Virus record (IMG/VR): IMGVR_UViG_3300046542_000271
Span: 48,422-112,421 of that record
DNA: 64,000 bases
Reading direction: 5' to 3' (one strand)
From: a virus
Shown here: positions 7,544 to 34,816 of the stretch, one piece after another
Layout: each line of letters begins with the position of its first letter
How positions within the stretch are numbered: the stretch's first letter is position 1
Notes under the pieces: model-generated
What the model saw: only the letters and a program-made list of their open reading frames with translations
Databases searched by the model: none
Told to the model about the DNA's origin: nothing
Program-made: the position numbers and the translations under genes

Positions 7544-9775
7544 TTAAAGTCCGAGGAACATCTTCCGTCGAGTGTCAGTCAGGACATCATACCCACCCGT
7601 CATGATGGGGAACGAAGACCCAATGAAGAGGTCCGCGTAACTCATCCGCTCAGGCTCAAGGTAATCGAGCGTGAGTGTCCGATCGCCAGAGATGTCGGTG
7701 ACAGCCTCGGGGATCAGCTTGAGAGTCGGTAGGGCGAAGTCCATGCGGGTAACGAGTGTTCCCCGACCTAACAGTTTGATGTTTGCGACGACCGGGATTT
7801 TACCGGTGACCATGTCCAGGGTAGAGCGGAAGTCCACTCCAACGTTGGCCTTGATCTTGTCATGCCGGCGCTCATACGAATCGACGTCCAGGATAGTGGG
7901 TGGGTCGATGTCGATCAACTTGTGTTCGGTTTCATCCAGTTTCGGAATCGACTGCTTAGGGAACTTCCCGTCCACGATCTTGACAGGGTTGTCGTTGATC
8001 GTCTTGATGAACTGCACCGAGTAGGACGAAAGCGCCTGCATGATGCGGATCATCGAAGCATGGATCTGACGAACGCTGTTCACGTTACTGAGGTCAGCAC
8101 CGGTAATCGAGTTGAAGATCGTGCTATACATCAGCTGATATTCAACACGTCCCATGGTGGCAGTGTCGATCCCCATCTCGTTGAGCCAGGAGTCGTAGGA
8201 CTGCTCCTTCGCCAGGTCGATCCGGATGTCCTGGTAGAACCGATCCACCACAGTGTGCAGTTGACCTTCCGCTCGCCAGTCCTGGTAGTAGCAACGGAAC
8301 TTACGGTGGTCCAACATCTTGCGGTGGATGTCGACACAGAGTTCCCGGAAAGCTTCCACCGAGACGTAACGCGTGATAGGTGCCTGGTCCGTCAACAGGT
8401 GATGGATGGCATAGTCTGGCACACGTTTAGGTTCAGCGAACTTCCTGAGCTCTGTAAACGTCGGCAACGGCATACGACGAACACGGTTGGCCGACAGAAC
8501 CGGCACCTTATCGAGTGTGATCCCGATAGCCTTGTTGTACGCATAGATGTAGAAGATGAAGGCGTTCTTGGCCGTCAGCTTAAACGTATCCCCGTTACTC
8601 GGGTTGGTGATCGACATTACGGTGTTGTAGCGACCGAAGTGCGACAAGTACAGCCAGTGGTTCAACAAGACGTCAGTCAGGGTGAACGGGTCCGCGTCAG
8701 CACGGTCAAGAACGTTGGAGTCCAGGACCTTGGTGATGTGGGTACTGGTCTTGGCATGAACCGATCGCTTGGTAACGTCGATCTCATGGTCGTCCCGGTA
8801 TGGCGTGTTACCCCTGGCGATCCCGTCTTCCATGTCGAGGATCTCGCCCACGGATTTATCGGTAGCGCCGTTAGCAGGTTCGATCCCGTTGAGGGTTTCC
8901 TGCTGGAGCTCAACCACAGGCTTGAGCGTCGTGGTGGTTTTGTCATACACATGACTCAGCTTAAAGCCGGACAGGTTGAAACCACGATCCGTCAGCACCT
9001 TCTCGGTGGTGAGCTTGAGGATCTCTTCACGCCCCAGGTTACGGTTGAGGTAACGGATGTTGCGGTACAGCCACAGACGCAGCTTACGCGTCATGTAGTC
9101 GAACTCTTTACCGACTGCACTGAACGAGGTCAGGTATTGGCGCACGTAGAACGTATGCACGTAATCGGTTTTACACATCTCTTTACGAAGCGTGACAATC
9201 CACAGCGGAAGCTTCGTGTAGAGGACACCCAACAAGCCCGTATAGTAGAAGGGTTCGAACAGACCGTAGTCCCGGTTATCGCGTTGCAGGAAGTACATGT
9301 CGATGTAACGCTGAACCCGTGGGATCAGGTACTCTTCACCTTCCTCGACTTCCTTTTTGTCATGCCACAAGATCTTATGGTCTTCTGACGTAACTGCGGT
9401 CTCGATATCGATGGGGTTCAGGATACCGTTGATCAGCGCTTGCTGGTCAGGATACCTGGCTACCAGGTCTTTATAATAGACCGAACCGTAGGCGTATTCG
9501 CGCTTCGTACCACGGTGCTCTGCTAAGGTCACAATGTCGAATGGGATCTCTTCCTGGGTGTCCAGGGAAACCACCGTCATGTCGGTATCCGACTCGTGGT
9601 ACGTACCCGCCATGTTGAGGTAGTACTTCCAAGTGTACGGATTGTCTCGATCCACCTTGTACCCTAACTGGGTCACTTTGGTGTTGAGGAGATCAGCTGT
9701 ACTCGCACTCTTTATTAAGAGCGTAGCCGCCAATTTCAATGTGCTCTTGATATAGAGCCGGTAATGGGCATTCAT
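7544..9775 (-). CDS. Virion structural protein, probable baseplate wedge (phiKZ gp128-like)
   Basis: WKYYLNMAG.YH..D and WLYRNIRYL.RN.G motifs. Divergent from the portal gene. Confidence 0.7.
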   Translation of the reverse strand: MNAHYRLYIKSTLKLAATLLIKSASTADLLNTKVTQLGYKVDRDNPYTWKYYLNMAGTYHESDTDMTVVSLDTQEEIPFDIVTLAEHRGTKREYAYGSVYYKDLVARYPDQQALINGILNPIDIETAVTSEDHKILWHDKKEVEEGEEYLIPRVQRYIDMYFLQRDNRDYGLFEPFYYTGLLGVLYTKLPLWIVTLRKEMCKTDYVHTFYVRQYLTSFSAVGKEFDYMTRKLRLWLYRNIRYLNRNLGREEILKLTTEKVLTDRGFNLSGFKLSHVYDKTTTTLKPVVELQQETLNGIEPANGATDKSVGEILDMEDGIARGNTPYRDDHEIDVTKRSVHAKTSTHITKVLDSNVLDRADADPFTLTDVLLNHWLYLSHFGRYNTVMSITNPSNGDTFKLTAKNAFIFYIYAYNKAIGITLDKVPVLSANRVRRMPLPTFTELRKFAEPKRVPDYAIHHLLTDQAPITRYVSVEAFRELCVDIHRKMLDHRKFRCYYQDWRAEGQLHTVVDRFYQDIRIDLAKEQSYDSWLNEMGIDTATMGRVEYQLMYSTIFNSITGADLSNVNSVRQIHASMIRIMQALSSYSVQFIKTINDNPVKIVDGKFPKQSIPKLDETEHKLIDIDPPTILDVDSYERRHDKIKANVGVDFRSTLDMVTGKIPVVANIKLLGRGTLVTRMDFALPTLKLIPEAVTDISGDRTLTLDYLEPERMSYADLFIGSSFPIMTGGYDVLTDTRRKMFLGL

Positions 9776-9810: not shown

Positions 9811-12800
9811 ATGGACACTAACGAGGTTAGCGGACAGTCTCGAGTTGAGCAGTTCCGTGACTTGTCTGAAACGGACAAGAACGTTATTAAACGCCTTACC
9901 GTCGACAGAGCCAATAAGAAAGGTGGCGGCACCGATCGTCTGGATCTGTCTCCGTTGTCTGGCGTGTTTCGCCGTACGCTGCGTGATGCAACGGACATCC
10001 GTAACATCTTCCAGACGATGCCGGACCTTCACCTTCCGCGTGAAATCCTCATCAGTGCCATCATGTCACCAGGGGATCTCTCGCAACAAACCCTGATCTT
10101 CGGCAACGACATGAAAGGCTGTGATACAGCCCTCACGGCGCCTCTGGTTAAGAACCTTGAAGACTTCTTTATCACTATAAAGAAGACGGACACCAAGGTT
10201 GCCGAATGGGTAGACGACGCCCTTATCTGGTCTGGTGCTCACCCGATCCTCATCATCCCCGAAGCCACACTCGACCGGTTGGTCCTGGGTGACGACGATG
10301 CGTCGATGGAATCCATCAGCTCGTACGGTGGTGAGTTTGTCGATGGGTGGTACAAACCCAAAGGTATTTTCGGCCTTAGCGTACCGACGGTAGACGGTCA
10401 CGCATACGTTTCGATGGAGTCCGCAAGCGGTCGCATCCGCCAAGGCTCCATGGCTGAATATCATACAATCAAGACGACGAGGGGTGAGAAGAAGCTCAGT
10501 CTGCCTATTCGCGTGACTGACAACATGGCCGTGTTGCGCACTCCGGCTGTCCAGAAGATGAAACGCAGTCGCGTGATGGAAAATGCTTATGGCACTCCAT
10601 CGCTTGAAGCGCGTAAACGTCAGCGTAAAGCGGACAATCAGAAAGACGCGCCAGATGCCTCGTCGATCTACAACAAGTTCTATCGTCAGCCACAACAAGT
10701 GCGCCGTAGCCGCCTCCAGGTGGTGCCTAGCGGTAAACAAGCTGGCGGGGGTAACGCAGGTCACCCACTCGAGTATCACCTCTCCACTGAAGCGGTGATG
10801 CCGGTCTGCGTACCTGGTGATGAATCCAACCACGTTGGGTACATTATCCTTCTGGATGCCAACGGCTATCCGATCAGCTACAGTCGCCGTCTGAACTACT
10901 ACGATGACATCCGTCGCAGCAGTGGCGGTACTGACAACGCCGGTAGCTCTGGCGGTGTGGCCGGTGAACTGATCCAGATGTCGAAGGAAGCGATCGTTGG
11001 TGGTATTGCCAACGCCTCTGACACTCAGATCGATCGTCTGGCTGACTTGCACGCTGACCTGGTGGATGCTGACATCGTAGCCCGTTTCCGGACTGGCATG
11101 ATGGGTGGTGACTTCGAGCTCACTCACACCGAGCACATTGACCGTCTGATGTTTGCACGGACAATGAAGAACCAACTGACCACCATGCTCTACGTACCTG
11201 CTGAGCTCATGATCTACATGGCTTATGAGTACAACGAGTTTGGTATCGGTAAGTCGATCCTGGAAGATGCCAAGTCGCTCGCTGCTATGCGCGCCGCTGT
11301 TACCGTGGCTAACGTGATTGGTTCGACCAAGAACGCGATCCCTGGTAAGGACATCAACATCGAGCTGCCTGAGGATGACGGTGACCCACTGGGTACTGCT
11401 ACCTTCATGGCAAACGAAGCGTTGGGTCTGGCGTATCACCAGTTCCCGATGGCGATCAGTTCGACTGTGGGTCTGGCTGAGCAACTCCAGATGTCGTCCT
11501 TCTCGGTCAACGTAACGGGTAACCCTCGGTTCCCTGAAGTGAAGACCTCCATCTCTCCGCGTGAGTCCAGTTTCGCTCAGATCGATAACGACCTGCAACA
11601 GCAGCTGCGTGATGACCTGACGCGGGTATTCGGCCTGACGCCTGAAATGGTGGACAACGTCAACCAGCCTGAGTTTGCAACGACAGCTGTGCAGAACAGC
11701 CTGATGCTGCAAAAACGTGTGATGGTGATCCAGGGTAAGACCAACCCGATGCTGACCGACTACGTGCGTATCTTTACGTACAACTCGGGTATCCTCATCG
11801 GTGAGCTGATGGAGATCGTCGAGCAGAACGCTAAGTTGCTGCCTGATGACTACAAACAGGATCCTGAAGGCTTCCTGGAAGAGTTCCTGAATAACCTGAC
11901 TGTTAAGTTGCCGGCTCCTGAGAACGACAACCTGACCAAGCAGATGGAACTGTTCAACAACTTCAGCGAAACACTGGACAAGGCTCTGCCAGCTTACATC
12001 CGTGAAGAATACTTCGATGGCTACGCGCCTGACAAGATCAAGGAAGCCATGACAACTGTTGTGGAATCCTGGAAAGGCGTGATTCTGCGTCAATGGATGC
12101 GTAAGCGCGGTATCCTGCGTGAGTTGGACGTCTTCAGTTCTGCTGAGGATGGTAGCCCAATCATGGACCTGACCGAAGAGATGTCTAACCACGTCGAATC
12201 CGTCATGAAGTCCGTGGGTAGCTTCGCCAAGCGCGTGGCTAAGGACTCTGTCAAGCGTAAGAAGTCTACGGCTCAAACCGTGGATGAGCAGGACAAGGCG
12301 CAGAAGATGCTGGAAGAGCTGACCGCTGAGCCAGTTGATCCTAACGCTGAAGAAGACATGTACGGCGGTGGTCAGGATCTGGCCAACGGTAATGTCCCTG
12401 AAGAGCCTGACGATGAGTTTGGTGCTACTGACGGATTGGGTGATGGTACCGAAGGTGGCGATGTCAACGGTGATGGTAGCGATGATCTCAACATGGATCT
12501 GGGTGATGCTGAAGCGGGTGTTGATGCTAACACCAACGACAATGCGCTCACCGATACCAACGCTGACGCTACGGCAGATGCAACTGCTGAGACCACCGAT
12601 GCTACAGCTGATGCTAGCGCTGAACCTGCTTCGGCAGATGCGGATCTGGCTATCGACCTGGACGCTCCAGAAGGCGCTGAGACGCCAGACGCTGCTGAGC
12701 CTGCCGCTGATGCGGTTGAACCGGCTGCGCCTGCTGACGACGCTGCTGCGGCCCCTGAGGGTGAGCAGCCAGCTGACGTCGATACTGACTTGAACATTAA

Positions 12801-13077
12801 CCTGGATGAGCCTCCAGTTGATGGGAAAGAAGGTGTGGAAGAAGAGGGTGGTGAGAAACCTACTGCTGAAGATGGTGATCTCAACATCAACTTGGAAGAA
12901 CCTGAAGTACCTGAGGAGGAGCCTGAGCCTGAGGTAACGGAAGAGGATCTCAAGCTTGATCTGGGTGAAGCGCCTGAAGTGAAGGACGATAAAGACAAGG
13001 ATGACAAGAAAGGTAAGAAGGACGGTAAGGATGATCTGACGATCGACCTTGGCGAGCCTACTAAACCGAAGTCATAA
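9811..13077 (+). CDS. Portal protein (phiKZ gp129-like) with long acidic C-terminal extension
   Basis: SD GGAGAGGAG. Motifs EILISAIMSP.D, EAVMPVCVPG...HVGYIILLD..G.P and LYVP.E...Y.A..YN..G.GKS are typical of phiKZ-like portals. Confidence 0.75.
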   Translation: MDTNEVSGQSRVEQFRDLSETDKNVIKRLTVDRANKKGGGTDRLDLSPLSGVFRRTLRDATDIRNIFQTMPDLHLPREILISAIMSPGDLSQQTLIFGNDMKGCDTALTAPLVKNLEDFFITIKKTDTKVAEWVDDALIWSGAHPILIIPEATLDRLVLGDDDASMESISSYGGEFVDGWYKPKGIFGLSVPTVDGHAYVSMESASGRIRQGSMAEYHTIKTTRGEKKLSLPIRVTDNMAVLRTPAVQKMKRSRVMENAYGTPSLEARKRQRKADNQKDAPDASSIYNKFYRQPQQVRRSRLQVVPSGKQAGGGNAGHPLEYHLSTEAVMPVCVPGDESNHVGYIILLDANGYPISYSRRLNYYDDIRRSSGGTDNAGSSGGVAGELIQMSKEAIVGGIANASDTQIDRLADLHADLVDADIVARFRTGMMGGDFELTHTEHIDRLMFARTMKNQLTTMLYVPAELMIYMAYEYNEFGIGKSILEDAKSLAAMRAAVTVANVIGSTKNAIPGKDINIELPEDDGDPLGTATFMANEALGLAYHQFPMAISSTVGLAEQLQMSSFSVNVTGNPRFPEVKTSISPRESSFAQIDNDLQQQLRDDLTRVFGLTPEMVDNVNQPEFATTAVQNSLMLQKRVMVIQGKTNPMLTDYVRIFTYNSGILIGELMEIVEQNAKLLPDDYKQDPEGFLEEFLNNLTVKLPAPENDNLTKQMELFNNFSETLDKALPAYIREEYFDGYAPDKIKEAMTTVVESWKGVILRQWMRKRGILRELDVFSSAEDGSPIMDLTEEMSNHVESVMKSVGSFAKRVAKDSVKRKKSTAQTVDEQDKAQKMLEELTAEPVDPNAEEDMYGGGQDLANGNVPEEPDDEFGATDGLGDGTEGGDVNGDGSDDLNMDLGDAEAGVDANTNDNALTDTNADATADATAETTDATADASAEPASADADLAIDLDAPEGAETPDAAEPAADAVEPAAPADDAAAAPEGEQPADVDTDLNINLDEPPVDGKEGVEEEGGEKPTAEDGDLNINLEEPEVPEEEPEPEVTEEDLKLDLGEAPEVKDDKDKDDKKGKKDGKDDLTIDLGEPTKPKS

Positions 13078-13087
13078 GTCCCTTTGG

Positions 13088-13126
13088 AGAGGAGTGGGTT
13101 TCGGCCCACTCCTGCTCTATTTTGTT
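13088..13126 (+). terminator. Intrinsic terminator after portal
   Basis: AGGAGTGGG-TTTCGG-CCCACTCCT followed by TATTTTGTT. Confidence 0.75.
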
Positions 13127-13131
13127 GACGT

Positions 13132-13162
13132 AAATTTTTACAACGCGTAGTCATCAGATGAA
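13132..13162 (+). promoter_or_regulatory. Candidate middle promoter (TTTTTACA-N8-TCAT)
   Basis: Same motif and spacing at 40554-40573. Resembles the AT-rich ...TTAC middle-promoter motif described for phiKZ. Confidence 0.45.
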
Positions 13163-13183
13163 CTAATTTAATGCTTTATCTAA

Positions 13184-13250
13184 GTGAGTGTAGTGAGGCG
13201 TAGCCGAACGAAACGAACGTGGTAGACAACGAACGAAGTGAGTGTCTCTA
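13184..13250 (+). other. Structured intergenic element: two hairpins with tandem G-A pairs and GNA triloops
   Basis: GTGAGTGTAGTGA-GGC-GTA-GCC-GAACGAAACGAAC and AGACAACGA-AC-GAA-GT-GAGTGTCT. Confidence 0.6.
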
Positions 13251-13303
13251 GTGCTCTTAACTGTGTTCAGGAGGGGGAGGCTTTTATTACGCAAACTTCT
13301 CCG

Positions 13304-13326
13304 AGTGATACATTATTCAAGTGAAT
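13304..13326 (+). promoter_or_regulatory. Candidate early promoter (AGTSATACAT-N8-TGAAT)
   Basis: Identical architecture at 18995-19017. Both copies sit upstream of the first gene of an accessory operon. Confidence 0.55.
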
Positions 13327-13349
13327 ACACTAAGCTTAGGAGATATGGC

Positions 13350-13826
13350 ATGACTTTGCAACGAGTGACCATGGTACAGTCGTTAAAGCGAGACATTCTG
13401 GAACGCTCAGGTGTAGAAGTACCTACCCGTTTCGTTAACTGCATGATTTATGAAGATCTGCAAACCTTCGAAGATCTGTTGAAGGTCGATCCCAAACTCG
13501 CAATCAGGTTCCCTAACTTTGGCGCTCGTTGCGTTGATTTACTCAAGCGGATCCAACAGTCGCAAGATCCGGCTCTTCATCAAAGTAATCAGCACATGTT
13601 GACCGCTGTACGGAATCAGACGGTAGATTTGATTACTCGTCTGCGTCAAGAGATTCCGGCCTTCAACTCACTCCATGACGAAGAGCAAGTCTGGATCGTG
13701 ACCAACGTGCGTCTGCATGACTTCGAGTCATTCAAGTCAGCTGCTCTGCAAAGCTACGCCAATGGTGGCACGCCTGAGCGTGTGCTGCGCATGGCCATGA
13801 ATGAATTTGGCTTCAATAAGGGTTAG
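13350..13826 (+). CDS. Protein with RNA polymerase alpha-subunit CTD-like domain
   Basis: SD AGGAG. VEVPTRFVNCMIYEDLQTFEDLLKVDPKLAIRFPNFGARCVDLL aligns without gaps to alphaCTD [44 protein letters not shown]. Confidence 0.7.
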   Translation: MTLQRVTMVQSLKRDILERSGVEVPTRFVNCMIYEDLQTFEDLLKVDPKLAIRFPNFGARCVDLLKRIQQSQDPALHQSNQHMLTAVRNQTVDLITRLRQEIPAFNSLHDEEQVWIVTNVRLHDFESFKSAALQSYANGGTPERVLRMAMNEFGFNKG

Positions 13827-13836
13827 GGGATCCGAC

Positions 13837-14514
13837 ATGTCTTTGAAAAGAACACTCACTACGCAAGAACGTGTGGACCTTGCAGTCAAGGCTGGTTACT
13901 GGGCAGATATCACAGAGTTCGTCAGGATGCATGATGGTCAGGGCGCTACTGGCGCTGAAACCGGTAACGGCGTCATCTCTATCGCTGAACCCTCTGGTAC
14001 ACCTAAGGTGTACAGTGCGTTACCTGGCTATGCATTCCCAGCTATCGATTGTTATCTGAACACTTTCGGGATTCCGTTAGATGTTGAAGTCGAGACGCCT
14101 GCGGTATCCGCACCCAAAGCGTCTATGCTGTCAATGGCTCATTTGCAGTATGCCAACCATTGCCACGAGCAGGCGGCGTACTTTGAATCTCAATCGGGTA
14201 AGACCTGCTCTGGTCGATTGAAGGAGGATGCGGAATACGCCGCAGCACACACTGCCTTCTCGATGATTGAAGAGATCGTCCAGAAACATCCGATCGAGAT
14301 CCATGGTGCCACGATACTCGTCGATGACGTCAATGCGATCCGCACACTCAAGTTGGCCAGTGGTCGGATGGTCTGCCAGGCTAAGGGCTTCGCCGGTTAC
14401 GGTTACTACAAACCCGATGGCTACACAAGCCACATGTCGGTTGATGACATCCTCAACCACGAAATCAACGAACTCGCCAACGTTCTGCACGATAAAGGCC
14501 TGGGTCTCAATTAA
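13837..14514 (+). CDS. Hypothetical protein
   Basis: SD AGGGGA before ATG 13837. Packed operon. Confidence 0.7.
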   Translation: MSLKRTLTTQERVDLAVKAGYWADITEFVRMHDGQGATGAETGNGVISIAEPSGTPKVYSALPGYAFPAIDCYLNTFGIPLDVEVETPAVSAPKASMLSMAHLQYANHCHEQAAYFESQSGKTCSGRLKEDAEYAAAHTAFSMIEEIVQKHPIEIHGATILVDDVNAIRTLKLASGRMVCQAKGFAGYGYYKPDGYTSHMSVDDILNHEINELANVLHDKGLGLN

Positions 14515-14524
14515 GGAGTTTCAC

Positions 14525-15349
14525 ATGCGTCAAGAAGTATTCAACGATTTCATCCGCAGCTTCCGTATAAACCCTGCTGAACTCACTGCCCTCACGAAGC
14601 TGTACCTCTCGTACAACGTGCGTCAGGAACTACATCGTAGCAACGCTAATCCGGTGATCGTCCTCGATGGGAATGAGATCAGCCTCGACTCTTGGGATGT
14701 CGGCATCAACGGCGAGGTGGCTATCGAACACTTCGCAGAGAGTCAAAGTGCACCGCATGGCGTCATGTTGAACTTCGGGCACGGTTTAAAGGTTCCGTTG
14801 TTCAATACCTGGGGCGTACCAACGAAACCTCCACTCGGTACCGGCGACAACGAACCGGCGGTCGAAGATCGTAAAGACCGTCGCCGTGAAGAGGTACGCA
14901 TGGAACGCGTCGACTGCGAGCGCCATATGGACGCGGTGGATATCCAGATCCTGCGTAACGTTTACAGTAAGTGGTCCAAGACCTTGCTTGACCTGATGCA
15001 AGGCTGGTGGCAGGTAGCAGTACCCGCGAAGGTATACAAGAAGTTCTCTGTGGGTCAGATCGTCTACCTCATCGGTGAAAAAGATCTACTGAATGCCGCC
15101 TGGGAAGTACGCAGTACGGGCATTGCCGGTGATCGAGACATCGAAGGGTGTCATCTGATGTCCGGCGCTATTGAGCCGATGTGTAGCGGTCACTGCGGTA
15201 CCGAACAAGAATGGCTGAAGTGTCATGCGGTTAATACCCGGATGCGTGAACAGATGGTTCCTACCGACGAAGAAAAGGAGTTCATCGATGTGGCAAGAGA
15301 CTTCATCGAGCGGAATTTCCGCCCGAAAGACCCACGCGATGCGCGCTAA
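14525..15349 (+). CDS. Hypothetical protein
   Basis: SD AAGGAG before ATG 14525. Cys/His cluster near the C-terminus. Confidence 0.75.
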   Translation: MRQEVFNDFIRSFRINPAELTALTKLYLSYNVRQELHRSNANPVIVLDGNEISLDSWDVGINGEVAIEHFAESQSAPHGVMLNFGHGLKVPLFNTWGVPTKPPLGTGDNEPAVEDRKDRRREEVRMERVDCERHMDAVDIQILRNVYSKWSKTLLDLMQGWWQVAVPAKVYKKFSVGQIVYLIGEKDLLNAAWEVRSTGIAGDRDIEGCHLMSGAIEPMCSGHCGTEQEWLKCHAVNTRMREQMVPTDEEKEFIDVARDFIERNFRPKDPRDAR

Positions 15350-15572
15350 CAACATCGCAGAGCTTCGTCCTCTCATCGGTCTGGCTCTGAAGATGGAGTT
15401 AGGTCGGTGGAAGGTCATCTGTAGTGACGGCATCGCTAAAGAAATCCACGTCAAAGCGGGTAACGTGATTTTCATCTTCAAAGTAGACGAGGTGAATATC
15501 GGTTACCTGGCACCCGGTGATGAAGTCCATGTGAACATCGCCACCGGTAAACTGACGCACGTACACCGTTAA
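15339..15572 (+). CDS. Small hypothetical protein
   Basis: Start MRANNIAEL overlaps the previous stop. Fills the operon gap. Confidence 0.6.
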   Translation: MRANNIAELRPLIGLALKMELGRWKVICSDGIAKEIHVKAGNVIFIFKVDEVNIGYLAPGDEVHVNIATGKLTHVHR

Positions 15573-15599
15573 CAACCAAAGCAATTGAGGGAAGGGAAG

Positions 15600-16184
15600 A
15601 TGGACCCAAAGCTGATGAAAGCTATTAATGAACAAATGCCCAGCCTTACAGTGGATGAGGTTTCTTGTAAGATCAATCAGGCTGGCCTGTACGGAACCTT
15701 CAGGAAACCGATGGAGTTAAAACTGAGTGATGATCGGGTCAGTATCCTGGACGTTGTCTTCAGCCAGGTAGACATGGAGGTCGCTCCAGCGGCAACCGCA
15801 CTGCGTAAGACGATCTTCATCATTGAAGATATCGCCACTGGCGAAGTGCACGTCAGTGAAAACTCTCGCCGTAGCTTTGGCATCAAGTTGATCCAGGCCG
15901 GCAACCTCGGCACGCTCTTCAAGGAACGTTTCGGTAAGGACTTCAAAGGCAAGATCCGCGTATGGTGGGGACACGAAAACGCCACCACTGAAAAGTACAA
16001 CGTTGAAACCTACCTGATGCCCAGGCTGGTTGACAAGAAGCGCGCTGACGATCGTGCAAATGTACTGCGTCGGGCCTACGACTCGATGGATATCGAGATG
16101 CGTCAACGATGGCGGGAGCGGTACCCTTACACTGCGGAGGTAGTACTGAAAGGCCATGAAGATTATCATCTCCGGAGGGCTTGA
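15600..16184 (+). CDS. Hypothetical protein
   Basis: Purine-rich SD before ATG 15600. Confidence 0.7.
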   Translation: MDPKLMKAINEQMPSLTVDEVSCKINQAGLYGTFRKPMELKLSDDRVSILDVVFSQVDMEVAPAATALRKTIFIIEDIATGEVHVSENSRRSFGIKLIQAGNLGTLFKERFGKDFKGKIRVWWGHENATTEKYNVETYLMPRLVDKKRADDRANVLRRAYDSMDIEMRQRWRERYPYTAEVVLKGHEDYHLRRA

Positions 16185-16185
16185 C

Positions 16186-16443
16186 ATGTCGGACAGTAAT
16201 CGCGATAAGCAGATCGTTAAGCGTCTGACTGAGTTCGTTACCGATCATCGGGGGCGAATCAAGCCAGAAGAGTTGGCTGCGGTTGACGCGTTCATCGCAG
16301 AGGAGTTGTTGCATTGTGACGTGCTGTTCAGCTACGCGGTCCACGGCGATGAAATTACCGGATGTACCTACAGTTACCGGGTAGGCGATGCCGTCACCGA
16401 TCGAACCGTGGTCGACATCAATGTCATCAACCCAGCTTCGTGA
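16186..16443 (+). CDS. Small hypothetical protein (apparently inserted gene)
   Basis: SD GGAGG at 16174, 7 nt before the ATG. Flanked by an imperfect direct repeat. Confidence 0.65.
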   Translation: MSDSNRDKQIVKRLTEFVTDHRGRIKPEELAAVDAFIAEELLHCDVLFSYAVHGDEITGCTYSYRVGDAVTDRTVVDINVINPAS

Positions 16444-16799
16444 AGATTATAATCTCCGGCGGGCGTGATTACACGGACCGTGATTTCATCTACATGGTAC
16501 TCGATCACGTTCATCGTGAACGGGTGATCACCCTCTTGATTGAAGGGGGTGCTAGGGGCGTGGATCGGATTGGGCGTGAGTGGGCCATTGACCGTGGTGT
16601 GCCTTATCACACAGAGCCTGCCGATTGGGACACGTACCCTAAATCCGCTGGACCTATTCGCAACAGAGTCATGTTGGCGATTGAAGGTGTGGATGGCGTA
16701 GTTGCCTTCCCAGGCGGTAAAGGAACGACCGATATGGTCAAAGCGACTCGGCGGGTGAAGATACCTGTTTACCTACCGAGTTTTGATTTCAAGATATAA
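16440..16799 (+). CDS. SLOG-superfamily protein (YspA/DUF2493-like)
   Basis: GTG start overlaps the upstream TGA. Motifs IIISGGRDY, EGGARGVD, AGPIRN.ML and VAFPGGKGT.DM. Confidence 0.85.
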   Translation: MKIIISGGRDYTDRDFIYMVLDHVHRERVITLLIEGGARGVDRIGREWAIDRGVPYHTEPADWDTYPKSAGPIRNRVMLAIEGVDGVVAFPGGKGTTDMVKATRRVKIPVYLPSFDFKI

Positions 16800-16812
16800 A
16801 GGGGAATGCCCA

Positions 16813-17172
16813 ATGCAATATGCACAACACTTCATTGACTCCAGCGCTGGAGTGGGTGAGGTCGATTACGCCCGTGGCGAGGTTGACCATCTGGACGAGT
16901 TGCTCGACCTGGAGTTCGTCAAGCAATACGGCAACATCTTGATGGTCCGCTTCCATCCGACTGACCGGACGAAAGCCAACCTGGTGTCCTTCAAGGATCA
17001 GCGGCCAACCATCCTGGCTGTACTCTCTGGGAACATCCAACCCACTGCCAACATCCCGGAATTCATTCCATCCCCAGTGGTGGACGTGACTCCCTTCGTG
17101 GTGCCTGAGAACTGGGGTCCTCCTCCTTCTCTTGATGACCTGTTTGCATCGGGTCTCGTAACAAAAGGCTAA
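16813..17172 (+). CDS. Hypothetical protein
   Basis: SD AGGGGA. Operon continuity. Confidence 0.65.
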   Translation: MQYAQHFIDSSAGVGEVDYARGEVDHLDELLDLEFVKQYGNILMVRFHPTDRTKANLVSFKDQRPTILAVLSGNIQPTANIPEFIPSPVVDVTPFVVPENWGPPPSLDDLFASGLVTKG

Positions 17173-17217
17173 CCTGCGGTATCTGAACTCAACTAATAAG
17201 AATTCGAGGGTTCGATC

Positions 17218-17679
17218 ATGTCTGCACAGACAAGCAATGACTTCAAAGCGTTCGAGGAGTTTTACAAAGCTAACCGGGATCACATCGACTTCAAAGAGAA
17301 GGGGTTGTGGGATCGGTTGCTGGAAGCTGATACACCTCAAGGATTTGAGTTCAAGATTACCGAAGGGGACAACTGTATCCATCTGTGCGTCAAGCATGGG
17401 TACGGCATCAACATGTACGTCAACAGCACCGCGATTGATCCGACTATGAATTACCTGATCTTTCGCGGTCAAGACGCTGTGGATAAGCTCGAGCAGATGT
17501 TGGACGATGGCACCATGGCCAAGACCCAGGCTCGCTTACCGATCTGCGTCAATGCATTACTAGGCGTTGTGGACGATGGCGTGCTCGCCGAGTTGTACAT
17601 GTCCATGACAGAGAAGTGTGACAAGGTCACTGGGATTTATGCGACAGCCTGGAATGGGTTGATCACAATCGAATACTGA
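17218..17679 (+). CDS. Hypothetical protein (paralogue of next gene)
   Basis: SD GAGGG. N-terminal FEEFYKANRD...W motif. Confidence 0.7.
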   Translation: MSAQTSNDFKAFEEFYKANRDHIDFKEKGLWDRLLEADTPQGFEFKITEGDNCIHLCVKHGYGINMYVNSTAIDPTMNYLIFRGQDAVDKLEQMLDDGTMAKTQARLPICVNALLGVVDDGVLAELYMSMTEKCDKVTGIYATAWNGLITIEY

Positions 17680-17691
17680 AGGGGAAGCTTT

Positions 17692-18162
17692 ATGGAATCT
17701 GTAACAACACTGGCGTTCGAAAACTTCGTCGGTTTCTATCACGAAAACCGCGACCGCTTCGAGTTGTCTAGCCGTAAGAAGTGGGATGAGGTGACAGCCT
17801 CTTTGACCGTGCCGAATAACTTCTACTGGGCGTCTGAACGTAAAGATGGCTACGATGCCATGATCATCGGCTGGTCCACCCGCGGTGGCCGTTATCAGTA
17901 CGAGTTCCCGTTGTACGAAATCCACTACCATAAGTGGACCGGTAAGGCCGCATTAGGTCACATGGCTGACCTGGGCGATAAGCTCGAAGAGTTGAACCCA
18001 ACCCTGGGCGATGCGATGGCTTTGTTGATTGAATTCAATGACGACGTCGAAGACCTGGCCGTGTGGTACAACGTGGATATCAACACAGGTAAGTTGTTGT
18101 TGTTCAAAGCCATCCGCGCTAAAGGCCTTCTCCAAGTCAAGGCTGAAATCGAAGAGGAATAA
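17692..18162 (+). CDS. Hypothetical protein (paralogue of previous gene)
   Basis: SD AGGGGA. N-terminal FVGFYHENRD...W motif. Confidence 0.7.
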   Translation: MESVTTLAFENFVGFYHENRDRFELSSRKKWDEVTASLTVPNNFYWASERKDGYDAMIIGWSTRGGRYQYEFPLYEIHYHKWTGKAALGHMADLGDKLEELNPTLGDAMALLIEFNDDVEDLAVWYNVDINTGKLLLFKAIRAKGLLQVKAEIEEE

Positions 18163-18165
18163 CCC

Positions 18166-18516
18166 ATGTATTGCGGCTTCGATACACAAGCCGCTTTCAT
18201 AGGGCACTGTCCTAGACTCATCGCTGAGTTAGATCGCATCACTGAGCTGGAGTATCCGAGCGGTACTAGTGATCTCTGGCTGGGTGACCTTGCGCTAGAT
18301 CCACCTGCCGCATTGGCGTATATGTTCAAGCGCCGGATGTTAGACGCGCTGATCGGCAAGATGGACGTACGTGGACGGAATGTCCGATACCTTGAACTGG
18401 TCTACGAAGCTGTAGACGATGAGGTACTCAAGTACGCAATCGCCTCTGGACATGTCAAACAACTGAAAATCAACAGCCGTGGTTATTACCTGGCTAACGG
18501 GGGAGTAGATAGATGA
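18166..18516 (+). CDS. Hypothetical protein
   Basis: SD GAGG. Tight packing. Confidence 0.65.
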   Translation: MYCGFDTQAAFIGHCPRLIAELDRITELEYPSGTSDLWLGDLALDPPAALAYMFKRRMLDALIGKMDVRGRNVRYLELVYEAVDDEVLKYAIASGHVKQLKINSRGYYLANGGVDR

Positions 18517-18926
18517 ACAATTATAACGCACGCATCCAAGATCTCATCCTCGAGATCAACGATACGTTGGCGCCTAAGCACTTTGTAGAAGGTCATCCTG
18601 AACCGGCGGTGTTCCAGCATTATCGTCGGGAGATCATCGATTGTCCGAAACGTCCAATGGGCTGCATGCAGTTGGACTTGTCTGTCAAGACGCACATCGG
18701 ACATGACCATCACCGTAGTGACATCATCGTCACGATCGATACCAATGCTCACACGACGTGCGAGCACAACTGGATGAACTTCCACGCTCATCTGGTGAAC
18801 TTCGAAATGAAGAGTCGTGGCAAGGTCTACGCACCTCTCACCTGTCGGATCATGACAGAGGATGGGGAAGATGGACAGCGCATGATCAAGTACTTGGTCG
18901 GCTTGTTGCAGAACCTAAAGGAATAG
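18513..18926 (+). CDS. Hypothetical protein
   Basis: ATGA overlap with the previous gene. SD GGAG. Confidence 0.7.
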   Translation: MNNYNARIQDLILEINDTLAPKHFVEGHPEPAVFQHYRREIIDCPKRPMGCMQLDLSVKTHIGHDHHRSDIIVTIDTNAHTTCEHNWMNFHAHLVNFEMKSRGKVYAPLTCRIMTEDGEDGQRMIKYLVGLLQNLKE

Positions 18927-18932
18927 CGGTAG

Positions 18933-18977
18933 GATACCAGCAGGCACTACGCCTGCTGGTATCTGTTCTTTTTTTTT
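18933..18977 (+). terminator. Intrinsic terminator
   Basis: GATACCAGCAGGC-ACTAC-GCCTGCTGGTATC followed by a T9 tract. Confidence 0.9.
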
Positions 18978-18994
18978 GCAGTTAACTTTATTTC

Positions 18995-19017
18995 AGTCAT
19001 ACATAGTAGTCATGAAT
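18995..19017 (+). promoter_or_regulatory. Candidate early promoter (AGTSATACAT-N8-TGAAT)
   Basis: Second copy of the 13304 motif, immediately after a terminator. Confidence 0.55.
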
Positions 19018-19068
19018 CAACCATCTGATTCATCAATCGCAATTACTTAGTCCGTGGAGGACATTAAC

Positions 19069-19461
19069 ATGACTACTCAAATCGCTATCGCTGCAATCGA
19101 AGCTTCCCTGCGCAACAAGATCGTTAACGATGGCACAGTGATGGTCCGCCTGTCGGAAGAATGCCTGGCTCAGATGAACTTCATCGTTGACCGCATCCGG
19201 GTCATGGCCAAGTACGACGAATCCAAACTGGACGCTGAACAAATGGAGTTCGCCGTCATGACTGCCGAGCGTTTCCATAACTCGTCCATCGGCACCAAGA
19301 TCACCGACGGCTACCTCGACCTGGAAGAAGAAACTCACGTCGAGCGTATCATGGCTGAGTTGGAAGAGCGGTTTGCCGAAGAGGACATGCCAATCGGCTT
19401 CATGGTTCCAGTGTTCCTGGTGAACAAGATCCTGAACGAAACCAAATCGTTCGCTCTGTAA
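19069..19461 (+). CDS. Hypothetical protein (strong codon bias)
   Basis: SD GGAGG within the repeated leader AGTCCGTGGAGGACA. Confidence 0.8.
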   Translation: MTTQIAIAAIEASLRNKIVNDGTVMVRLSEECLAQMNFIVDRIRVMAKYDESKLDAEQMEFAVMTAERFHNSSIGTKITDGYLDLEEETHVERIMAELEERFAEEDMPIGFMVPVFLVNKILNETKSFAL

Positions 19462-19521
19462 TACAAACCAATCCGGGGAGGCATGAGTCTCCCCAACCTA
19501 AAGTCCGTGGAGGACAAGCTT

Positions 19522-19893
19522 ATGTCGCGCAATGAATCCGCTGTAGCTGTAATCGCCGCCCTGCAAGCCAATGGTGGCATGTTCATCGACGATCACCGCA
19601 AGGGTCGTGATGGCGAATCGAAAGCCCAGATGTTCGGCATCTACAAAGAACAGGGTAAGGAACATGCCTTCATCGGCTACACCAACAGCCTGTTCTGCAT
19701 CAACAAATGCTACATCGACGAAGCGGGCAAAGTGCATCTGTCCGAGTGGTCCGTCGGCGGTAACGTTCGCATCGATCGTTTCAAGGGTGACGTCGAAGGC
19801 GCCATCTTGCAGTTCAACGAAGACTGCGCCAAGTACAACAGCTTCGACAAGGAAGCTCGCATCAGCGAGTGGCACCTGAACAAAGCTGCGTAA
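19522..19893 (+). CDS. Hypothetical protein (strong codon bias)
   Basis: Same 15-nt leader with SD GGAGG. Confidence 0.8.
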   Translation: MSRNESAVAVIAALQANGGMFIDDHRKGRDGESKAQMFGIYKEQGKEHAFIGYTNSLFCINKCYIDEAGKVHLSEWSVGGNVRIDRFKGDVEGAILQFNEDCAKYNSFDKEARISEWHLNKAA

Positions 19894-19898
19894 GTACT

Positions 19899-19940
19899 AG
19901 AGGGCGGGGAGCAATCCCCGCCACTCACTCTTTTCTTTTA
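19899..19940 (+). terminator. Intrinsic terminator
   Basis: GGCGGGGA-GCAA-TCCCCGCC (GNRA loop) followed by a T-rich tract. Confidence 0.75.
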
Positions 19941-19954
19941 TCTGGAGAATCGTC

Positions 19955-20470
19955 ATGTGGCATCAGCATAAAGAAGCACTCGCAATGTTCAATATCTGCA
20001 CCCTGGTGCGCGATCAGTTGAATAAAGAACAAGTCGCTGGCGAGCCTATCGAGGATATCCTCAAGCGCCTCATCGGGTTCTACCAGGTCACCACCCAGAA
20101 GTTGGCCATGCTCGTTATGCAGGCGGATCGAGAGACCCAGACCAAGCATTTGTCCCACGTACTACAAACCAGCATCCAGGCCTATGTGGCGCATGACGAG
20201 TACATCGACTTCCCCACACTGCGCGAATACCTCACAGCCACCTGGCCTGACATGGACGTTGAAGGGGCGATCAATCCAAACACGGTAACTTACCGAGACA
20301 AAGACGGTAATGTCCACGAACCGAAGGTGTTTGATCTCACACCCGACATGAAGATCATGTTGGAGAACGATGGGTTTACTGGCCGCGCTAACCAACCTCT
20401 CGACATCGACGCGAGTAAGCCCGTTCAATACAGTTACGTCGACCAACTCAATAAGGAAAGTGACAAATGA
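19955..20470 (+). CDS. Hypothetical protein
   Basis: SD GGAG before the ATG. Confidence 0.7.
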   Translation: MWHQHKEALAMFNICTLVRDQLNKEQVAGEPIEDILKRLIGFYQVTTQKLAMLVMQADRETQTKHLSHVLQTSIQAYVAHDEYIDFPTLREYLTATWPDMDVEGAINPNTVTYRDKDGNVHEPKVFDLTPDMKIMLENDGFTGRANQPLDIDASKPVQYSYVDQLNKESDK

Positions 20471-20661
20471 GCCGCACATTCAACGCAGACTTCTGTGGTG
20501 ATACCTTCAACTACGCCATCACGCCAAGTCGCGTGAAATCCTCACACATGAAGAAGAGTATGCATAAGCTGGCGCAGCAGATCTTCAACAACAAGTCTCT
20601 GCGTGCGAAGAACCGCATCCGTAAAGTTGCTCGGCAGTTCGCGGTAGTGACACTACGTTAA
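20467..20661 (+). CDS. Small basic hypothetical protein
   Basis: ATGA overlap, SD AAGGA, K/R-rich 64 aa. Confidence 0.55.
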   Translation: MSRTFNADFCGDTFNYAITPSRVKSSHMKKSMHKLAQQIFNNKSLRAKNRIRKVARQFAVVTLR

Positions 20662-20663
20662 CA

Positions 20664-20712
20664 GCATAGAGACAGGAGCTTACGCTCCTGTCTCTAGCTT
20701 TCTTTTTTTTGT
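20664..20712. terminator. Terminator with GCATA flank
   Basis: GCATAGAGACAGGAGC-TTAC-GCTCCTGTCTCTA plus a T tract, between convergent genes. Confidence 0.85.
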
Positions 20713-21387
20713 TTACGCAGCCTTGCGAACGTTGCCAGGCAGGAAACCTTTCACCAACTTGTTGCGCACTTTCTGGATGCACTCCAAGCGGGTGATCTTG
20801 CCATCAGCGTTGAAGTCGATGCCTTTGTTCGGAAGGAACTGACTGTCGCCTTCTTGCCACAGCACGGTGTCGTCTGACTTGCCGATACCGGCTGGCCATA
20901 GGATGGCCAAATAGATGTCGCCCAGGTTCTGGATCTTCTTGCGGTAAGGCAGGAAGTGTTTCTCCACGTAGCCCAGTTGCTCGACCACAGACATCTTGGC
21001 CAGAGCTTCGACGGTCGTACCCAGGCCGATAGCCGTGTTCTTCATGAACTGGATCAAGCCGGTTGCAGTGGATACAGGAGACTTGATCGATGGACTGAAA
21101 GTCTCACCAGTCTCCCACGCCATGCAGCCCATGAAGTCCTGGACGTTATGCGGTGGTAAACCGAGGTTACGAACCACCTGACGCAGCTTGGTGATCTCCT
21201 GCTCGGTGAATTTCTTACCCCAAGGGATATCGACAGCGTCATTGCTAACGATGTTACTCGCCAGCAGGGCCTGATACGCCTTCTCGGAGTTGTTACCCCA
21301 GATGCCATCCGGAGTCCCAGGATTGAAGCCCAATTGCTTGAGCCAGGTCTGGGTTTCGAGGATGGTCTTGTTTGGCGTGGTAGCCAT
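20713..21387 (-). CDS. Modular endolysin: N-terminal peptidoglycan-binding domain plus lysozyme-fold/lytic transglycosylase domain
   Basis: QTWLKQLGF.PG..DGIWG (PG_binding_1). MAWETG...ATGLIQFM catalytic motif. Sits after the tail-fibre genes, like phiKZ gp144. Confidence 0.85.
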   Translation of the reverse strand: MATTPNKTILETQTWLKQLGFNPGTPDGIWGNNSEKAYQALLASNIVSNDAVDIPWGKKFTEQEITKLRQVVRNLGLPPHNVQDFMGCMAWETGETFSPSIKSPVSTATGLIQFMKNTAIGLGTTVEALAKMSVVEQLGYVEKHFLPYRKKIQNLGDIYLAILWPAGIGKSDDTVLWQEGDSQFLPNKGIDFNADGKITRLECIQKVRNKLVKGFLPGNVRKAA

Positions 21388-22030: not shown

Positions 22031-22771
22031 TTACAGAGGATTCCAGGTAGCTGGGAGTTTGGTCGGTGCATCGATAGTACCAGCCGATACAGGGATGACC
22101 GAACCACGCGGGATGAGGCTTGGACGGAAGGTGCTGATCCGGACAACAGGAGCCACCGTGATCGACGCAACGCCCGTACCGTTAGTGACCACGGTGCCGA
22201 TGTACATGATCGTGGCGGACTCAGGAGGAGAATCCGTACGCACCTGGTACAGTACCTGACCAAACCGCAGCTTCACGAACAGGTAGAACGTCTTGTTGGC
22301 TGGCGATGGATCTGCCGAAGCCAAGTCGAGCGTAGCAATCGGAACGTTGTACGGAACGCCAGACATCACGATCGGTACGACCTTGTTACAGGTAATACGA
22401 AACGCACTGCTTGTCCAGATAGTCGCGACGTTAACAGCCCGACTATCAAGCCATCCGTAGTGAGACAGCGGTACGATGGATCGTGGGATCTTCGTGGTGA
22501 GTAGCCCATCCACCATAGGGGCGGAGTACGAACCGATACTGACCATGGACTCCCCGTGTGGGTTGTCCTTCCTGGCAGCGTGAGTCGCGAGTGCGTCCCG
22601 CGCTGCTTGTAGGAGTTTGGCGACAGTCCAGTCGACCTTGAGGATACCGGCATCGCCAGAGCGAACAGCCAGGGGACGAATCCGCACTTTAAGGATGCGG
22701 ATCATCTCGTTACGGTATTTCAAGAACGACTTGGTCCGGAAGAGCTTGAGAGCTGAAATAGGACCAGCCAT
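22031..22771 (-). CDS. Short tail-fibre paralogue (cassette 2, short b)
   Basis: H...DNPH N-module, PLSHYG, and C-terminal RGSVIPVSAG...W module. Confidence 0.7.
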   Translation of the reverse strand: MAGPISALKLFRTKSFLKYRNEMIRILKVRIRPLAVRSGDAGILKVDWTVAKLLQAARDALATHAARKDNPHGESMVSIGSYSAPMVDGLLTTKIPRSIVPLSHYGWLDSRAVNVATIWTSSAFRITCNKVVPIVMSGVPYNVPIATLDLASADPSPANKTFYLFVKLRFGQVLYQVRTDSPPESATIMYIGTVVTNGTGVASITVAPVVRISTFRPSLIPRGSVIPVSAGTIDAPTKLPATWNPL

Positions 22772-22780
22772 GATGCCTCC

Positions 22781-23467
22781 TTATTGGAACCAAGTGGACG
22801 GAAGAGTACCCTGAGCAGCCTGAGTACCAGTCGAGTGCGGGATACCTTGACCACGCGGTGCATCAGTGATCGGGAAGTAGCCAATACGTGCACCCTTCTC
22901 CATCACGACACTCCACGTACTACCTGACTTGGTAGCGACGCCAATCGCGAACTCGTACTGACCTTCGCTAGCATCCGCGTCCAGGGAGAACGTCCCAACA
23001 ACCGCCGGAGGCTCTCCCGTGAACGTGACCTTGACGTAGTACTTAGACCCAGCGCCCAACGCCAATGCCGCTCCAGGTACCACGACAGTACGACCGTTGA
23101 AGATCAGGGTACTGGCAGGTACGTTGAGGTTACTGCCTGCGATGGTTGCAGCGATCAATGGGACCTTGCTGATCGGGAAGGCATCCTTGGGGAAGTACAC
23201 CGCCGACTTCGCGTCGTACGTCGATTTGGCCATGCCACCCAGTTGAGCCAAGGTTTCGCCGTGAGAGCTAGGCTTGGCGGTCTCGTGGGTGGTAACCTCG
23301 CCCTTGATGATGGCGATGATATCTGCCAGCGAGAGTCCGGTGAGTTTGTCTGTGTCTCCAGACTCTCTGACGCGACCCGCCTTCGACTTGATCAGCCGAA
23401 AGATCTGAGTCTTGTACTTGCCGAACTTCAAGCTGAGAGCTGCTAACATCTCTGCGCTTGTGGCCAT
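22781..23467 (-). CDS. Short tail-fibre paralogue (cassette 2, short a)
   Basis: HE...SSHGET..QLG, FPISK, and RGQGIPHSTG...W. Confidence 0.7.
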   Translation of the reverse strand: MATSAEMLAALSLKFGKYKTQIFRLIKSKAGRVRESGDTDKLTGLSLADIIAIIKGEVTTHETAKPSSHGETLAQLGGMAKSTYDAKSAVYFPKDAFPISKVPLIAATIAGSNLNVPASTLIFNGRTVVVPGAALALGAGSKYYVKVTFTGEPPAVVGTFSLDADASEGQYEFAIGVATKSGSTWSVVMEKGARIGYFPITDAPRGQGIPHSTGTQAAQGTLPSTWFQ

Positions 23468-23470
23468 GAG

Positions 23471-26383: not shown

Positions 26384-26406
26384 GACCGGTAGTTCCTATC
26401 GAAAGA

Positions 26407-27048
26407 TTACAGAAGCGCGAGTTCGGACGCTGCGATGTCAAACTCATTCGCGATGCCCAGGCAGAACGCATCGTAGTCCGCAAACTTCGCACGAATCTGG
26501 TCGAGCAACAGTTGACGACTGGCAGTGTCACCCTCACGGATGGCTGCTGCGATGTCATAGTTGGACTCGATCAGATATTTGAGACCATATAAGTCGTAGG
26601 CACTGTGCAAGTGTGGTGTCGGCACAAATTGCGACGGGATACCGATGATGTCACCCCAGGCAATAACCCGGTTATCATCCGTCAGATCCTCGATTGCCTG
26701 CAAGATAGCGTACAGGGAATACGAGAACTCACCACCGACCATTTGCGCACTGATGGAGACCTGAGTGCCCACAGTCGGGTTGATGATCCGTACCGCGGTG
26801 TAGACCGACTGACCAGTGGCGAGGGAAGCCTCACGGTAGTGGTGGACCAACACGTAGTCGGTAACCGGAACCAGGACCTTGCCAGAGACGACGTCCTTGA
26901 TGATGGCGGTAGAACCGAAGAACGGACCGTAGTCCGCTGCGAACAAACGACCACGCAAAGCGCCGATCGTGTGCACTTCGTTCGTCACCTTGTTGGTTGG
27001 GCTTGTCCCCAGGAGGTCCAACGGGTATTTGAAGATGGTACCAGCCAT
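26407..27048 (-). CDS. Virion protein, putative fibre adapter (cassette 2)
   Basis: YPLDLLG....NKV..E.H, GPFF, Q.VGGE.S, P.QF.P..H.H and SNYDIAAAIRE. Paralogue of 31414-32235. Confidence 0.7.
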   Translation of the reverse strand: MAGTIFKYPLDLLGTSPTNKVTNEVHTIGALRGRLFAADYGPFFGSTAIIKDVVSGKVLVPVTDYVLVHHYREASLATGQSVYTAVRIINPTVGTQVSISAQMVGGEFSYSLYAILQAIEDLTDDNRVIAWGDIIGIPSQFVPTPHLHSAYDLYGLKYLIESNYDIAAAIREGDTASRQLLLDQIRAKFADYDAFCLGIANEFDIAASELALL

Positions 27049-27063
27049 TGTAATGACCTCTAA

Positions 27064-27762: not shown

Positions 27763-27774
27763 TACTTGACCTCG

Positions 27775-28482: not shown

Positions 28483-28485
28483 GTA

Positions 28486-31401: not shown

Positions 31402-31413
31402 GAAGAGAGTCCT

Positions 31414-34750: not shown

Positions 34751-34816
34751 GAGTACCTCGTAAAGTTTCACACACTGAAAGTATGGTAAAGAAGAAAGGC
34801 TCGGAGCTGATAAATC

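Follow-up and report, generated by a model that had tools for sequence, protein, structure and literature searches.

A stretch of 64,000 nucleotides (hereafter the window), that is, the last 64 kb of the 112,421-bp IMG/VR record IMGVR_UViG_3300046542_000271, which is estimated to be 45% complete, carries at 13350..13826 (+ strand) a small gene with its ATG at 13350 and its stop codon at 13824-13826. The gene encodes a 158-residue, two-domain protein (hereafter designated P0001), in which a head at the N-terminus, homologous to the bacterial RNA polymerase (RNAP) alpha subunit's C-terminal domain (alpha-CTD), is followed by an all-helical domain predicted to mediate homodimerisation. The source of the window is a phiKZ-like jumbo phage, as seen from the gene at 61089-62801 for the phiKZ-type split RNAP beta subunit (phrog_2986 'RNA polymerase beta subunit', E 1.8e-182), from the virion proteins, whose best relatives belong to Escherichia phage Goslar, Xanthomonas phage LucasX, and Pseudomonas phage pPa_SNUABM_DT01 (36–38% identity), and from the homologues of the neighbouring gene 13837-14514, which lie on contigs of 258–268 kb, lengths unlike those of the contigs that carry the P0001 orthologues. 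Proteins of phrog_3004, 3222, 3293, and 3201 are also present. The phage RNAP genes were missed by the Pfam families PF00562 and PF00623 but were detected by PHROGs. Formation of a phage nucleus may be supposed from kinship only. The RNAPs of jumbo phages lack alpha, and no homologue of a known transcription initiation factor can be recognised in the genomes (PMC7598289); with the beta-subunit gene in the window, this bears out an earlier reading made from the letters alone (hereafter the sequence-only reading), according to which the RNAP of this phage type has no alpha subunit.

The P0001 gene is preceded by the Shine-Dalgarno sequence AGGAGA at 13339..13344 (+ strand), 5 nt before the ATG, as read directly from the sequence. 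A longer reading of the frame from the GTG at 13242 is unlikely, with the N-termini of the orthologues aligning near residues 6–8 of P0001. Five orthologues, full-length or near full-length, were found with 61–65% identity and long invariant blocks; the family members that carry the head domain are six in number (P0001, P0002–P0005, and the L008 fragment). Beyond the orthologues the family holds fragments, and the metagenome scan gave only an identical copy (L007) and the partial homologue L008, the genomic context of which differs from that of P0001. No member was added by a second profile search with the family, no relative was found by the family profile in IMG/VR, and no family member was found among 50,697 phage records by megablast of 12800-15600 or tblastn of P0001, while the PHROGs search of P0001 returned only a weak match (phrog_34356, E 0.2). 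A JGI metagenome protein of 124 residues, P0006, is a truncated orthologue that bears the source name 'predicted Fe-S protein YdhL (DUF1289 family)', a name for which no support came from any search made.

The window stretch or parts of it were found in runs labelled as metagenomes of rhizosphere, plant, soil, compost, sediment, and wetland, with identical pieces in a rhizosphere run and a 95% variant in a plant-metagenome run. The variant, a 4.7-kb contig about 95% identical over 12944-15400, differs from the P0001 reading frame at six positions or more, and the six differences listed are all third-position and synonymous; the intergenic stretch just upstream has far more differences. The ribosome-binding site, the orthologues, and the synonymous nature of the listed differences show that the P0001 gene is real and under purifying selection. 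It could be argued from the sub-threshold Pfam score of P0001 alone and from the small number of family members that the frame arose by chance or is a decaying remnant without function. Such an origin is scarcely credible: it is effectively refuted by the pattern of conservation, with orthologues 61–65% identical in long invariant blocks and all listed variant differences synonymous, and is opposed also by the ribosome-binding site and the confident structural model.

The head comprises an N-terminal helix (residues 2-20; 13353..13409), which packs before the alpha-CTD core in the AlphaFold (AF2) model with a predicted local distance difference test score (pLDDT) of 78–90, and an alpha-CTD-like double helix-hairpin-helix, (HhH)2, domain (residues 21-70; 13410..13559), both on the + strand; the latter is supported by PF03118, a PDB profile search, hhalign, and superposition. 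PF03118 (RNA_pol_A_CTD) is the top Pfam match in all six family sequences with the domain, and its curated cut-off of 23.8 bits is exceeded by P0003 (32.0 bits) and P0004 (26.6 bits), the matches of P0002, P0005, and L008 being sub-threshold. In a Pfam search of P0001 extended to E 10, no HhH family other than PF03118 appeared (no HHH_5). Searched alone against the PDB, P0001 gave as best matches two RpoA chains (E 0.2 and 1.6), with residues 21-69 aligning without gaps to the solved alpha-CTDs, and the 22 best matches of the family profile were all RpoA (best E 1.2e-3). Moreover, hhalign paired residues 21-74 with residues 259-312 of E. coli RpoA in 54 ungapped columns when run against RpoA 245-329 (E 1e-4, probability 57.5%). 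The gap-free alignment that the sequence-only reading had placed at about residues 22–66 is thus recovered, in slightly longer form, against both the solved domains and RpoA.

The AF2 model of P0001 (pLDDT 84.3) contains helices matching alpha-CTD helices 1–4. Superposition with VIA-align, the structural check that had been proposed, gave Z 6.8 with 1z3e_B and 6.6 with both 4mex_A and 5vi8_T (rmsd, root-mean-square deviation, 2.0–2.1 Å over 53–57 residues), the superposed alpha-CTDs coming from B. subtilis, E. coli, and mycobacteria, and the identities to the E. coli, mycobacterial, and plastid alpha-CTDs (21–23%) are the highest in the structural match list. A search of residues 1-75 in the ESM Atlas gave scores of at most 0.88, which are leads only. 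Taken at the level of the family, the head is a diverged member of the alpha-CTD domain family, even though P0001 itself is sub-threshold; the profile check suggested with the sequence-only reading put P0003 and P0004 above the cut-off and P0001 below it.

The residues of the alpha-CTD that contact DNA form the 265 determinant (R265, N268, C269, G296, K298, and S299, with N294), the DNA-contact role of which has been described together with the 261 and 287 determinants (PMC1874639). Seven positions are invariant between E. coli and the six family sequences, namely R265 (R27 in P0001), N268 (N30), C269 (C31), E273 (E35), P293 (P55), N294 (N56), and G296 (G58). The position of K298 is occupied by R60, and by Ala in two relatives, and S299 and K297 are changed to C61 and A59. 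D280-L281 corresponds to D42-L43, the Asp being kept only in P0001. Every equivalence named in the sequence-only reading (R265, N268, C269, D280-L281, P293, N294, G296, and K298 replaced by R) is correct in both alignments, and its statement that the DNA-binding determinant for upstream promoter (UP) elements is kept agrees with the invariance of R27, N30, C31, N56, and G58 and the change of K298 to R60. With a pI of 8.8, the head (residues 1-72) is mildly basic. On the other faces, T285-E288 of the 287 determinant are replaced by D-P-K-L and are variable in the family, and D258 and D259 are not kept (S and G), E261 being retained as E23 in four of the five full-length members. Judged from these alignments, the DNA-binding 265 determinant is largely intact, and the 287 determinant (contacting CRP) and most of the 261 determinant are not kept; the 287 and 261 patches are functional features of enterobacterial alpha and are not required for membership in PF03118.

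These surfaces bear on the idea that the free head is a protein decoy that binds no DNA and titrates the host factors docking on alpha-CTD, such as sigma region 4, NusA AR2, and Spx-like or other activators. In its favour, alpha-CTD is a known docking hub through the 261 and 287 determinants (PMC1874639), the equivalent of E261 is mostly kept, and the fold resembles the NusA AR domains as well. With the 287 determinant variable, D258 and D259 lost, and the invariant residues being those that contact DNA, we consider a decoy improbable; in particular, the capture of CRP-type activators, one of the roles offered by the sequence-only reading, is weakened by the lack of conservation in the 287 determinant. 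A constrained DNA-contact face together with an unconstrained activator face speaks for DNA binding more than for an activator decoy.

The C-terminal all-helical domain (residues 74-158; 13569..13823, + strand) was modelled alone by AF2 with a pLDDT of 83.8. Conservation within the family is highest in SQDPALHQSNQH (residues 71-82; 13560..13595, + strand), which covers the linker and the beginning of the long helix; 11 of its 12 positions are invariant in the six sequences, which average 63% identity, the exception being S79 (N in P0004), and strong conservation continues into the helix beyond it. The domain also occurs alone in P0008 (88 residues) and is therefore an independent module. Foldseek of the whole P0001 model against the PDB gave nothing at E ≤ 0.001, and the C-terminal domain alone gave no clear match among PDB representatives (best Z 5.9 with an rmsd of 8.1 Å; a T4-lysozyme lobe and DnaD-like entries scored Z about 5) or in BFVD (best E 0.87), no usable match in an ESM Atlas feature search with residues 74-158, and no convincing sequence relative outside the family in Pfam, PHROGs, or profile searches. 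The domain is thus without detectable relatives, as the sequence-only reading had implied in describing a fusion to an unfamiliar helical domain of about 90 residues, and novelty of its fold is not concluded.

Prediction of a two-copy complex of P0001 gave an ipSAE (interaction prediction score from aligned errors) of 0.49, compared with 0.22 for the best control. In calibration, that mark was reached by 20 of 30 structures with pairs of the same chain and by 1 of 23 single-chain structures. The homodimer runs agreed in at least 79% of contacts, with partner pLDDT of at least 77, and the predicted interface is symmetric, formed by residues 80-95 and 110-123, and overlaps SQDPALHQSNQH, with residues 80 and 82-84 among those of the interface. 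Since no relative of the C-terminal domain has been solved, the pass is unlikely to stem from a memory of the model for a known complex. These predictions suggest that P0001 probably forms a symmetric homodimer through its C-terminal domain, which in turn favours a two-headed DNA binder.

We propose, tentatively and with somewhat less than even confidence, that P0001 forms a homodimer bearing two heads of the alpha-CTD type, binds A/T-rich DNA through the minor groove, and acts in trans at promoter-upstream regions, most probably in competition with the host alpha-CTD. The alpha-CTD-homologous head would be joined to a novel C-terminal helical domain pairing two subunits, so that the dimer would present two alpha-CTD-type HhH heads, as bacterial alpha2 does, without a polymerase attached. 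The heads would bind A/T-rich, UP-like DNA upstream of promoters, this target being the most likely because the residues for minor-groove contact are kept and the activator-contact patch is lost. Action in trans would follow from the RNAP type of the phage, which is without alpha, and from the use by jumbo phages of their own enzymes for transcription. P0001 would then occupy sites normally used by the host alpha-CTD, and host transcription might thereby be dampened or redirected during infection; the transcription modulated is probably that of the host more than that of the phage.

Several findings weigh against this proposal. P0001 itself scores 17.8 bits (E 0.0028) with PF03118, under the cut-off. 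The best structural match of the head is the HhH domain of LigA (NAD-ligase; Z 8.0), and Rad51, NusA AR, and SAM domains score close to the alpha-CTDs, so that the fold alone is not diagnostic. The changes of S299 to C and of K297 to A, with Ala for K298 in two relatives, mean that the affinity for DNA may differ from that of a true alpha-CTD. In the complex predictions, 57 confident contacts (score 0.22) were also made by an unrelated control protein, so that the model may be showing a sticky helical surface. The family is very small, and nine cultured relatives are without it: PF03118 had no match in Goslar, phiKZ, LucasX, pPa_SNUABM_DT01, 201phi2-1, SPN3US, RTH11, or Moabite, and only a 12.5-bit fragment in Erwinia phage pEa_SNUABM_54, which means that any role of P0001 is dispensable. 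Finally, the evidence fits host and phage targets alike.

The structural matches in particular invite the view that P0001 is a generic (HhH)2 DNA binder engaged in repair or recombination, genome organisation, or counter-defence, with no role in transcription and with its likeness to alpha-CTD reflecting only the descent of the module. Besides LigA, the HhH domains of Rad51, XPF/ERCC1, UvrC, and DisA reach Z 5–7, and the closest sequence matches outside the family are not RpoA but bacterial proteins of several domains in which alpha-CTD modules are repeated. Those same proteins, on the other hand, combine the module with sigma-70 region 4, itself a transcription module, and PF03118 is the sole HhH family of Pfam matched by P0001 even at E 10, with the DNA-contact residues specific to alpha-CTD conserved. 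Because other (HhH)2 domains score in the same range, the fold places the head in the (HhH)2 superfamily and the sequence places it with alpha-CTD; a generic binder is judged improbable, and competition with the host alpha-CTD is retained as the preferred interpretation.

The setting of the gene is that of an accessory unit. The upstream neighbour (9811-13077) encodes a 1088-residue virion protein (phrog_3004), whose end (12319-13077) is a long, low-complexity, acidic tail in which DL-x-[IL]-[DN]-L motifs recur, and it is closed by a strong intrinsic terminator at 13090..13113 (+ strand; a 10-pair stem with 6 GC pairs, then a T-run), which marks the start of a new transcription unit. The P0001 gene opens an island of about 15 small orphan genes on the same strand (13350-20470), flanked by conserved virion and baseplate genes. 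The first unit of the island (13350-18926) ends at a strong terminator (18932..18964, + strand; a 14-pair stem, then a T-run), and a further terminator at 20667-20696 closes the island. The position at the head of the island, in a phage with its own RNAP of the type without alpha, fits an accessory role. Only one gene of the island could be assigned to a family, namely that of a YAcAr/SLOG protein (16440-16799). Its start (KIIISGG...; 16440-16469) is duplicated 284 nt upstream at 16156-16185, and the duplication surrounds a 95-residue reading frame (16156-16443) in a manner that looks like the footprint of a gene insertion. Farther on, 22031-32235 holds two tandem cassettes, each consisting of a gene of about 970 residues and smaller paralogous fibre-like genes (phrog_3573 and related families). 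No Rfam family was found in 12900-21000 and no tRNA in the window.

Upstream of 13350, no sigma-70-like promoter was found. The region contains an AT-rich inverted repeat, GTAAATTTTTAC (GTAAA-N2-TTTAC; 13130..13141, + strand), a candidate phage promoter or operator 220 nt before the ATG. Exact copies of the pattern occur only here and at position 9497-9508 of the genome, the latter as part of an 18-nt perfect palindrome, and copies with one mismatch lie at 34760-34771, 57 nt before the start of an SbcC-like gene (34817), and at 40549-40560, 65 nt before that of an RNase H-like gene (40614). All four sites are intergenic and upstream of + strand genes, and 100 Markov simulations gave zero exact copies; the pattern was defined post hoc from the sites themselves and is a lead, not a test. 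It fits the published description of jumbo-phage early promoters, which are conserved AT-rich motifs of about 10 nt (PMC7598289). The sequence-only reading had P0001 as the first gene after a candidate early promoter, and this is partly supported: the gene comes first after the terminator at 13090-13113 and has the inverted repeat at 13130 before it, with no sigma-70-like element found and the motif defined post hoc. The contig shows no occurrence of the phiKZ-type string TATATTAC and no enrichment of TTATTAC.

The leader of the P0001 operon (about 200–220 nt) has no unusual RNA structure (z 0.17). Within it, 13182-13245 contains AAGTGAGTGT in two exact copies with a spacing of 54 nt, along with CGAACGAA units that recur. 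One RNA run covers only 12963-13246, through a diverged contig, and none of the P0001 gene, giving evidence neither way. Two other recurring elements were seen near gene starts. The exact 17-mer TTTCAGTCATACATAGT occurs twice, at 18991-19007 of the window, just after the terminator at 18932-18964, and at 39392-39408 of the genome, with an ATG within about 5–8 nt after each copy; it may represent a second promoter class with very short leaders. An extended 11- to 14-mer resembling a ribosome-binding site, with the core GTCCGTGGAGGACA, recurs four to six times just before gene starts (genome positions 163, 421, 1661, 36021, 67472, and 67925, the last two being 19051 and 19504 of the window).

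The inverted repeat gives rise to another reading, in which P0001 is a regulator or adaptor directed at the phage itself and the dimer binds AT-rich elements of phage promoters, for example, GTAAA-N2-TTTAC before its own operon, either for repression or autoregulation or to supply in trans an upstream DNA contact for the phage RNAP. That enzyme is of a type without alpha, in phages with no recognised initiation factor homologues and with AT-rich early promoters of about 10 nt (PMC7598289); the 12-bp repeat precedes the P0001 operon and three other genes, including the SbcC-like and RNase H-like ones, and an inverted repeat suits a symmetric dimer such as the one predicted. Opposed to this are the location of the P0001 gene outside the conserved core, with no PF03118 match in the nine cultured phiKZ-like genomes and no family member in the 50,697 phage records, its place in a variable island of orphan genes, with L008 in a different context, and the post hoc definition of the motif. 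Moreover, the half-sites are spaced about 7 bp apart, as against the roughly 10-bp spacing of UP subsites. We regard a phage-directed role as unlikely. A specific form of it, in which the P0001 dimer is the missing upstream-promoter reader that is provided in trans to the phage RNAP without alpha, binds AT-rich inverted repeats at some phage promoters, and recruits or stabilises the enzyme, is very unlikely; if true, P0001 would be the first initiation factor with a cellular ancestry to be identified for transcription by phiKZ-type RNAPs.

Collectively, the one polymerase module that docks activators and reads upstream promoter DNA is present in a phiKZ-like phage as a constrained copy, in what is predicted to be the form of a free dimer. 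Should P0001 block UP-dependent promoters of the host, as we prefer to think, it would shut off the host in a new and simple way, through molecular mimicry of a polymerase domain, and should phage promoters be its targets, it would give access to a question not yet solved, namely how promoters are found by jumbo-phage polymerases. Either way, P0001 is compact and easy to test, and it offers a natural means of probing alpha-CTD-dependent transcription.

Among known systems, the closest in kind is the C-terminal domain of RpoA (E. coli 249-329; PF03118; PDB 1LB2 and 3K4G), which has the same four-helix (HhH)2 fold as the P0001 head, a gap-free alignment of about 50 residues, and shared DNA-contact residues, yet only about 20–23% identity. 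In RpoA, the alpha-CTD stands at the C-terminus behind the N-terminal domain (alpha-NTD) and a flexible linker, whereas in P0001 it is free-standing and N-terminal (residues 21-70), with the unrelated, predicted dimerisation domain joined after it. No Pfam family of alpha-NTD was found in P0001 even at E 10, so that P0001 cannot assemble into RNAP as alpha does; with the domain order also inverted, it is not an RNAP alpha subunit, in accord with the sequence-only reading, which had excluded a core subunit. The (HhH)2 domains of NusA AR1/AR2, LigA, RuvA, and the Rad51 N-terminal domain share the fold class of the head (Z 5–8) but give no sequence-level match to P0001 and are without the R265/N268/C269 constellation. 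The bacterial multidomain proteins P0009, P0011, and P0014, in which sigma-70 region 4 and several alpha-CTD modules are used outside RpoA, are the nearest sequence matches to the head beyond the family (E about 1e-5); they are uncharacterised proteins of 686–1147 residues with repeated modules and have no counterpart of the C-terminal domain of P0001.

Modules detached from the polymerase, like that of P0001, are also encoded by other phages. By tblastn with the E. coli alpha-CTD, few genuine phage genes were found, those of Bacillus phage Goe8 and Ruegeria phage V16 being examples, and jumbo phiKZ-like records gave none; the free-standing proteins include the 'RNA polymerase subunit alpha' of Bacillus phage vB_BmeM-Goe8, and free alpha-CTD modules likewise make up a cluster of 118 proteins of 78 residues in the ESM Atlas, 99% of them with PF03118 and mostly viral. 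Literature searches found no published functional study of phage-encoded alpha-CTD proteins. These proteins have no detectable sequence relationship to P0001 beyond the shared domain, and P0001 differs from them in its C-terminal domain and in belonging to a phage that encodes its own RNAP of the type without alpha. Relative to the published work found, both the architecture, an alpha-CTD head joined to this predicted dimerisation domain, and its setting in a phage with an RNAP of the type without alpha are new.

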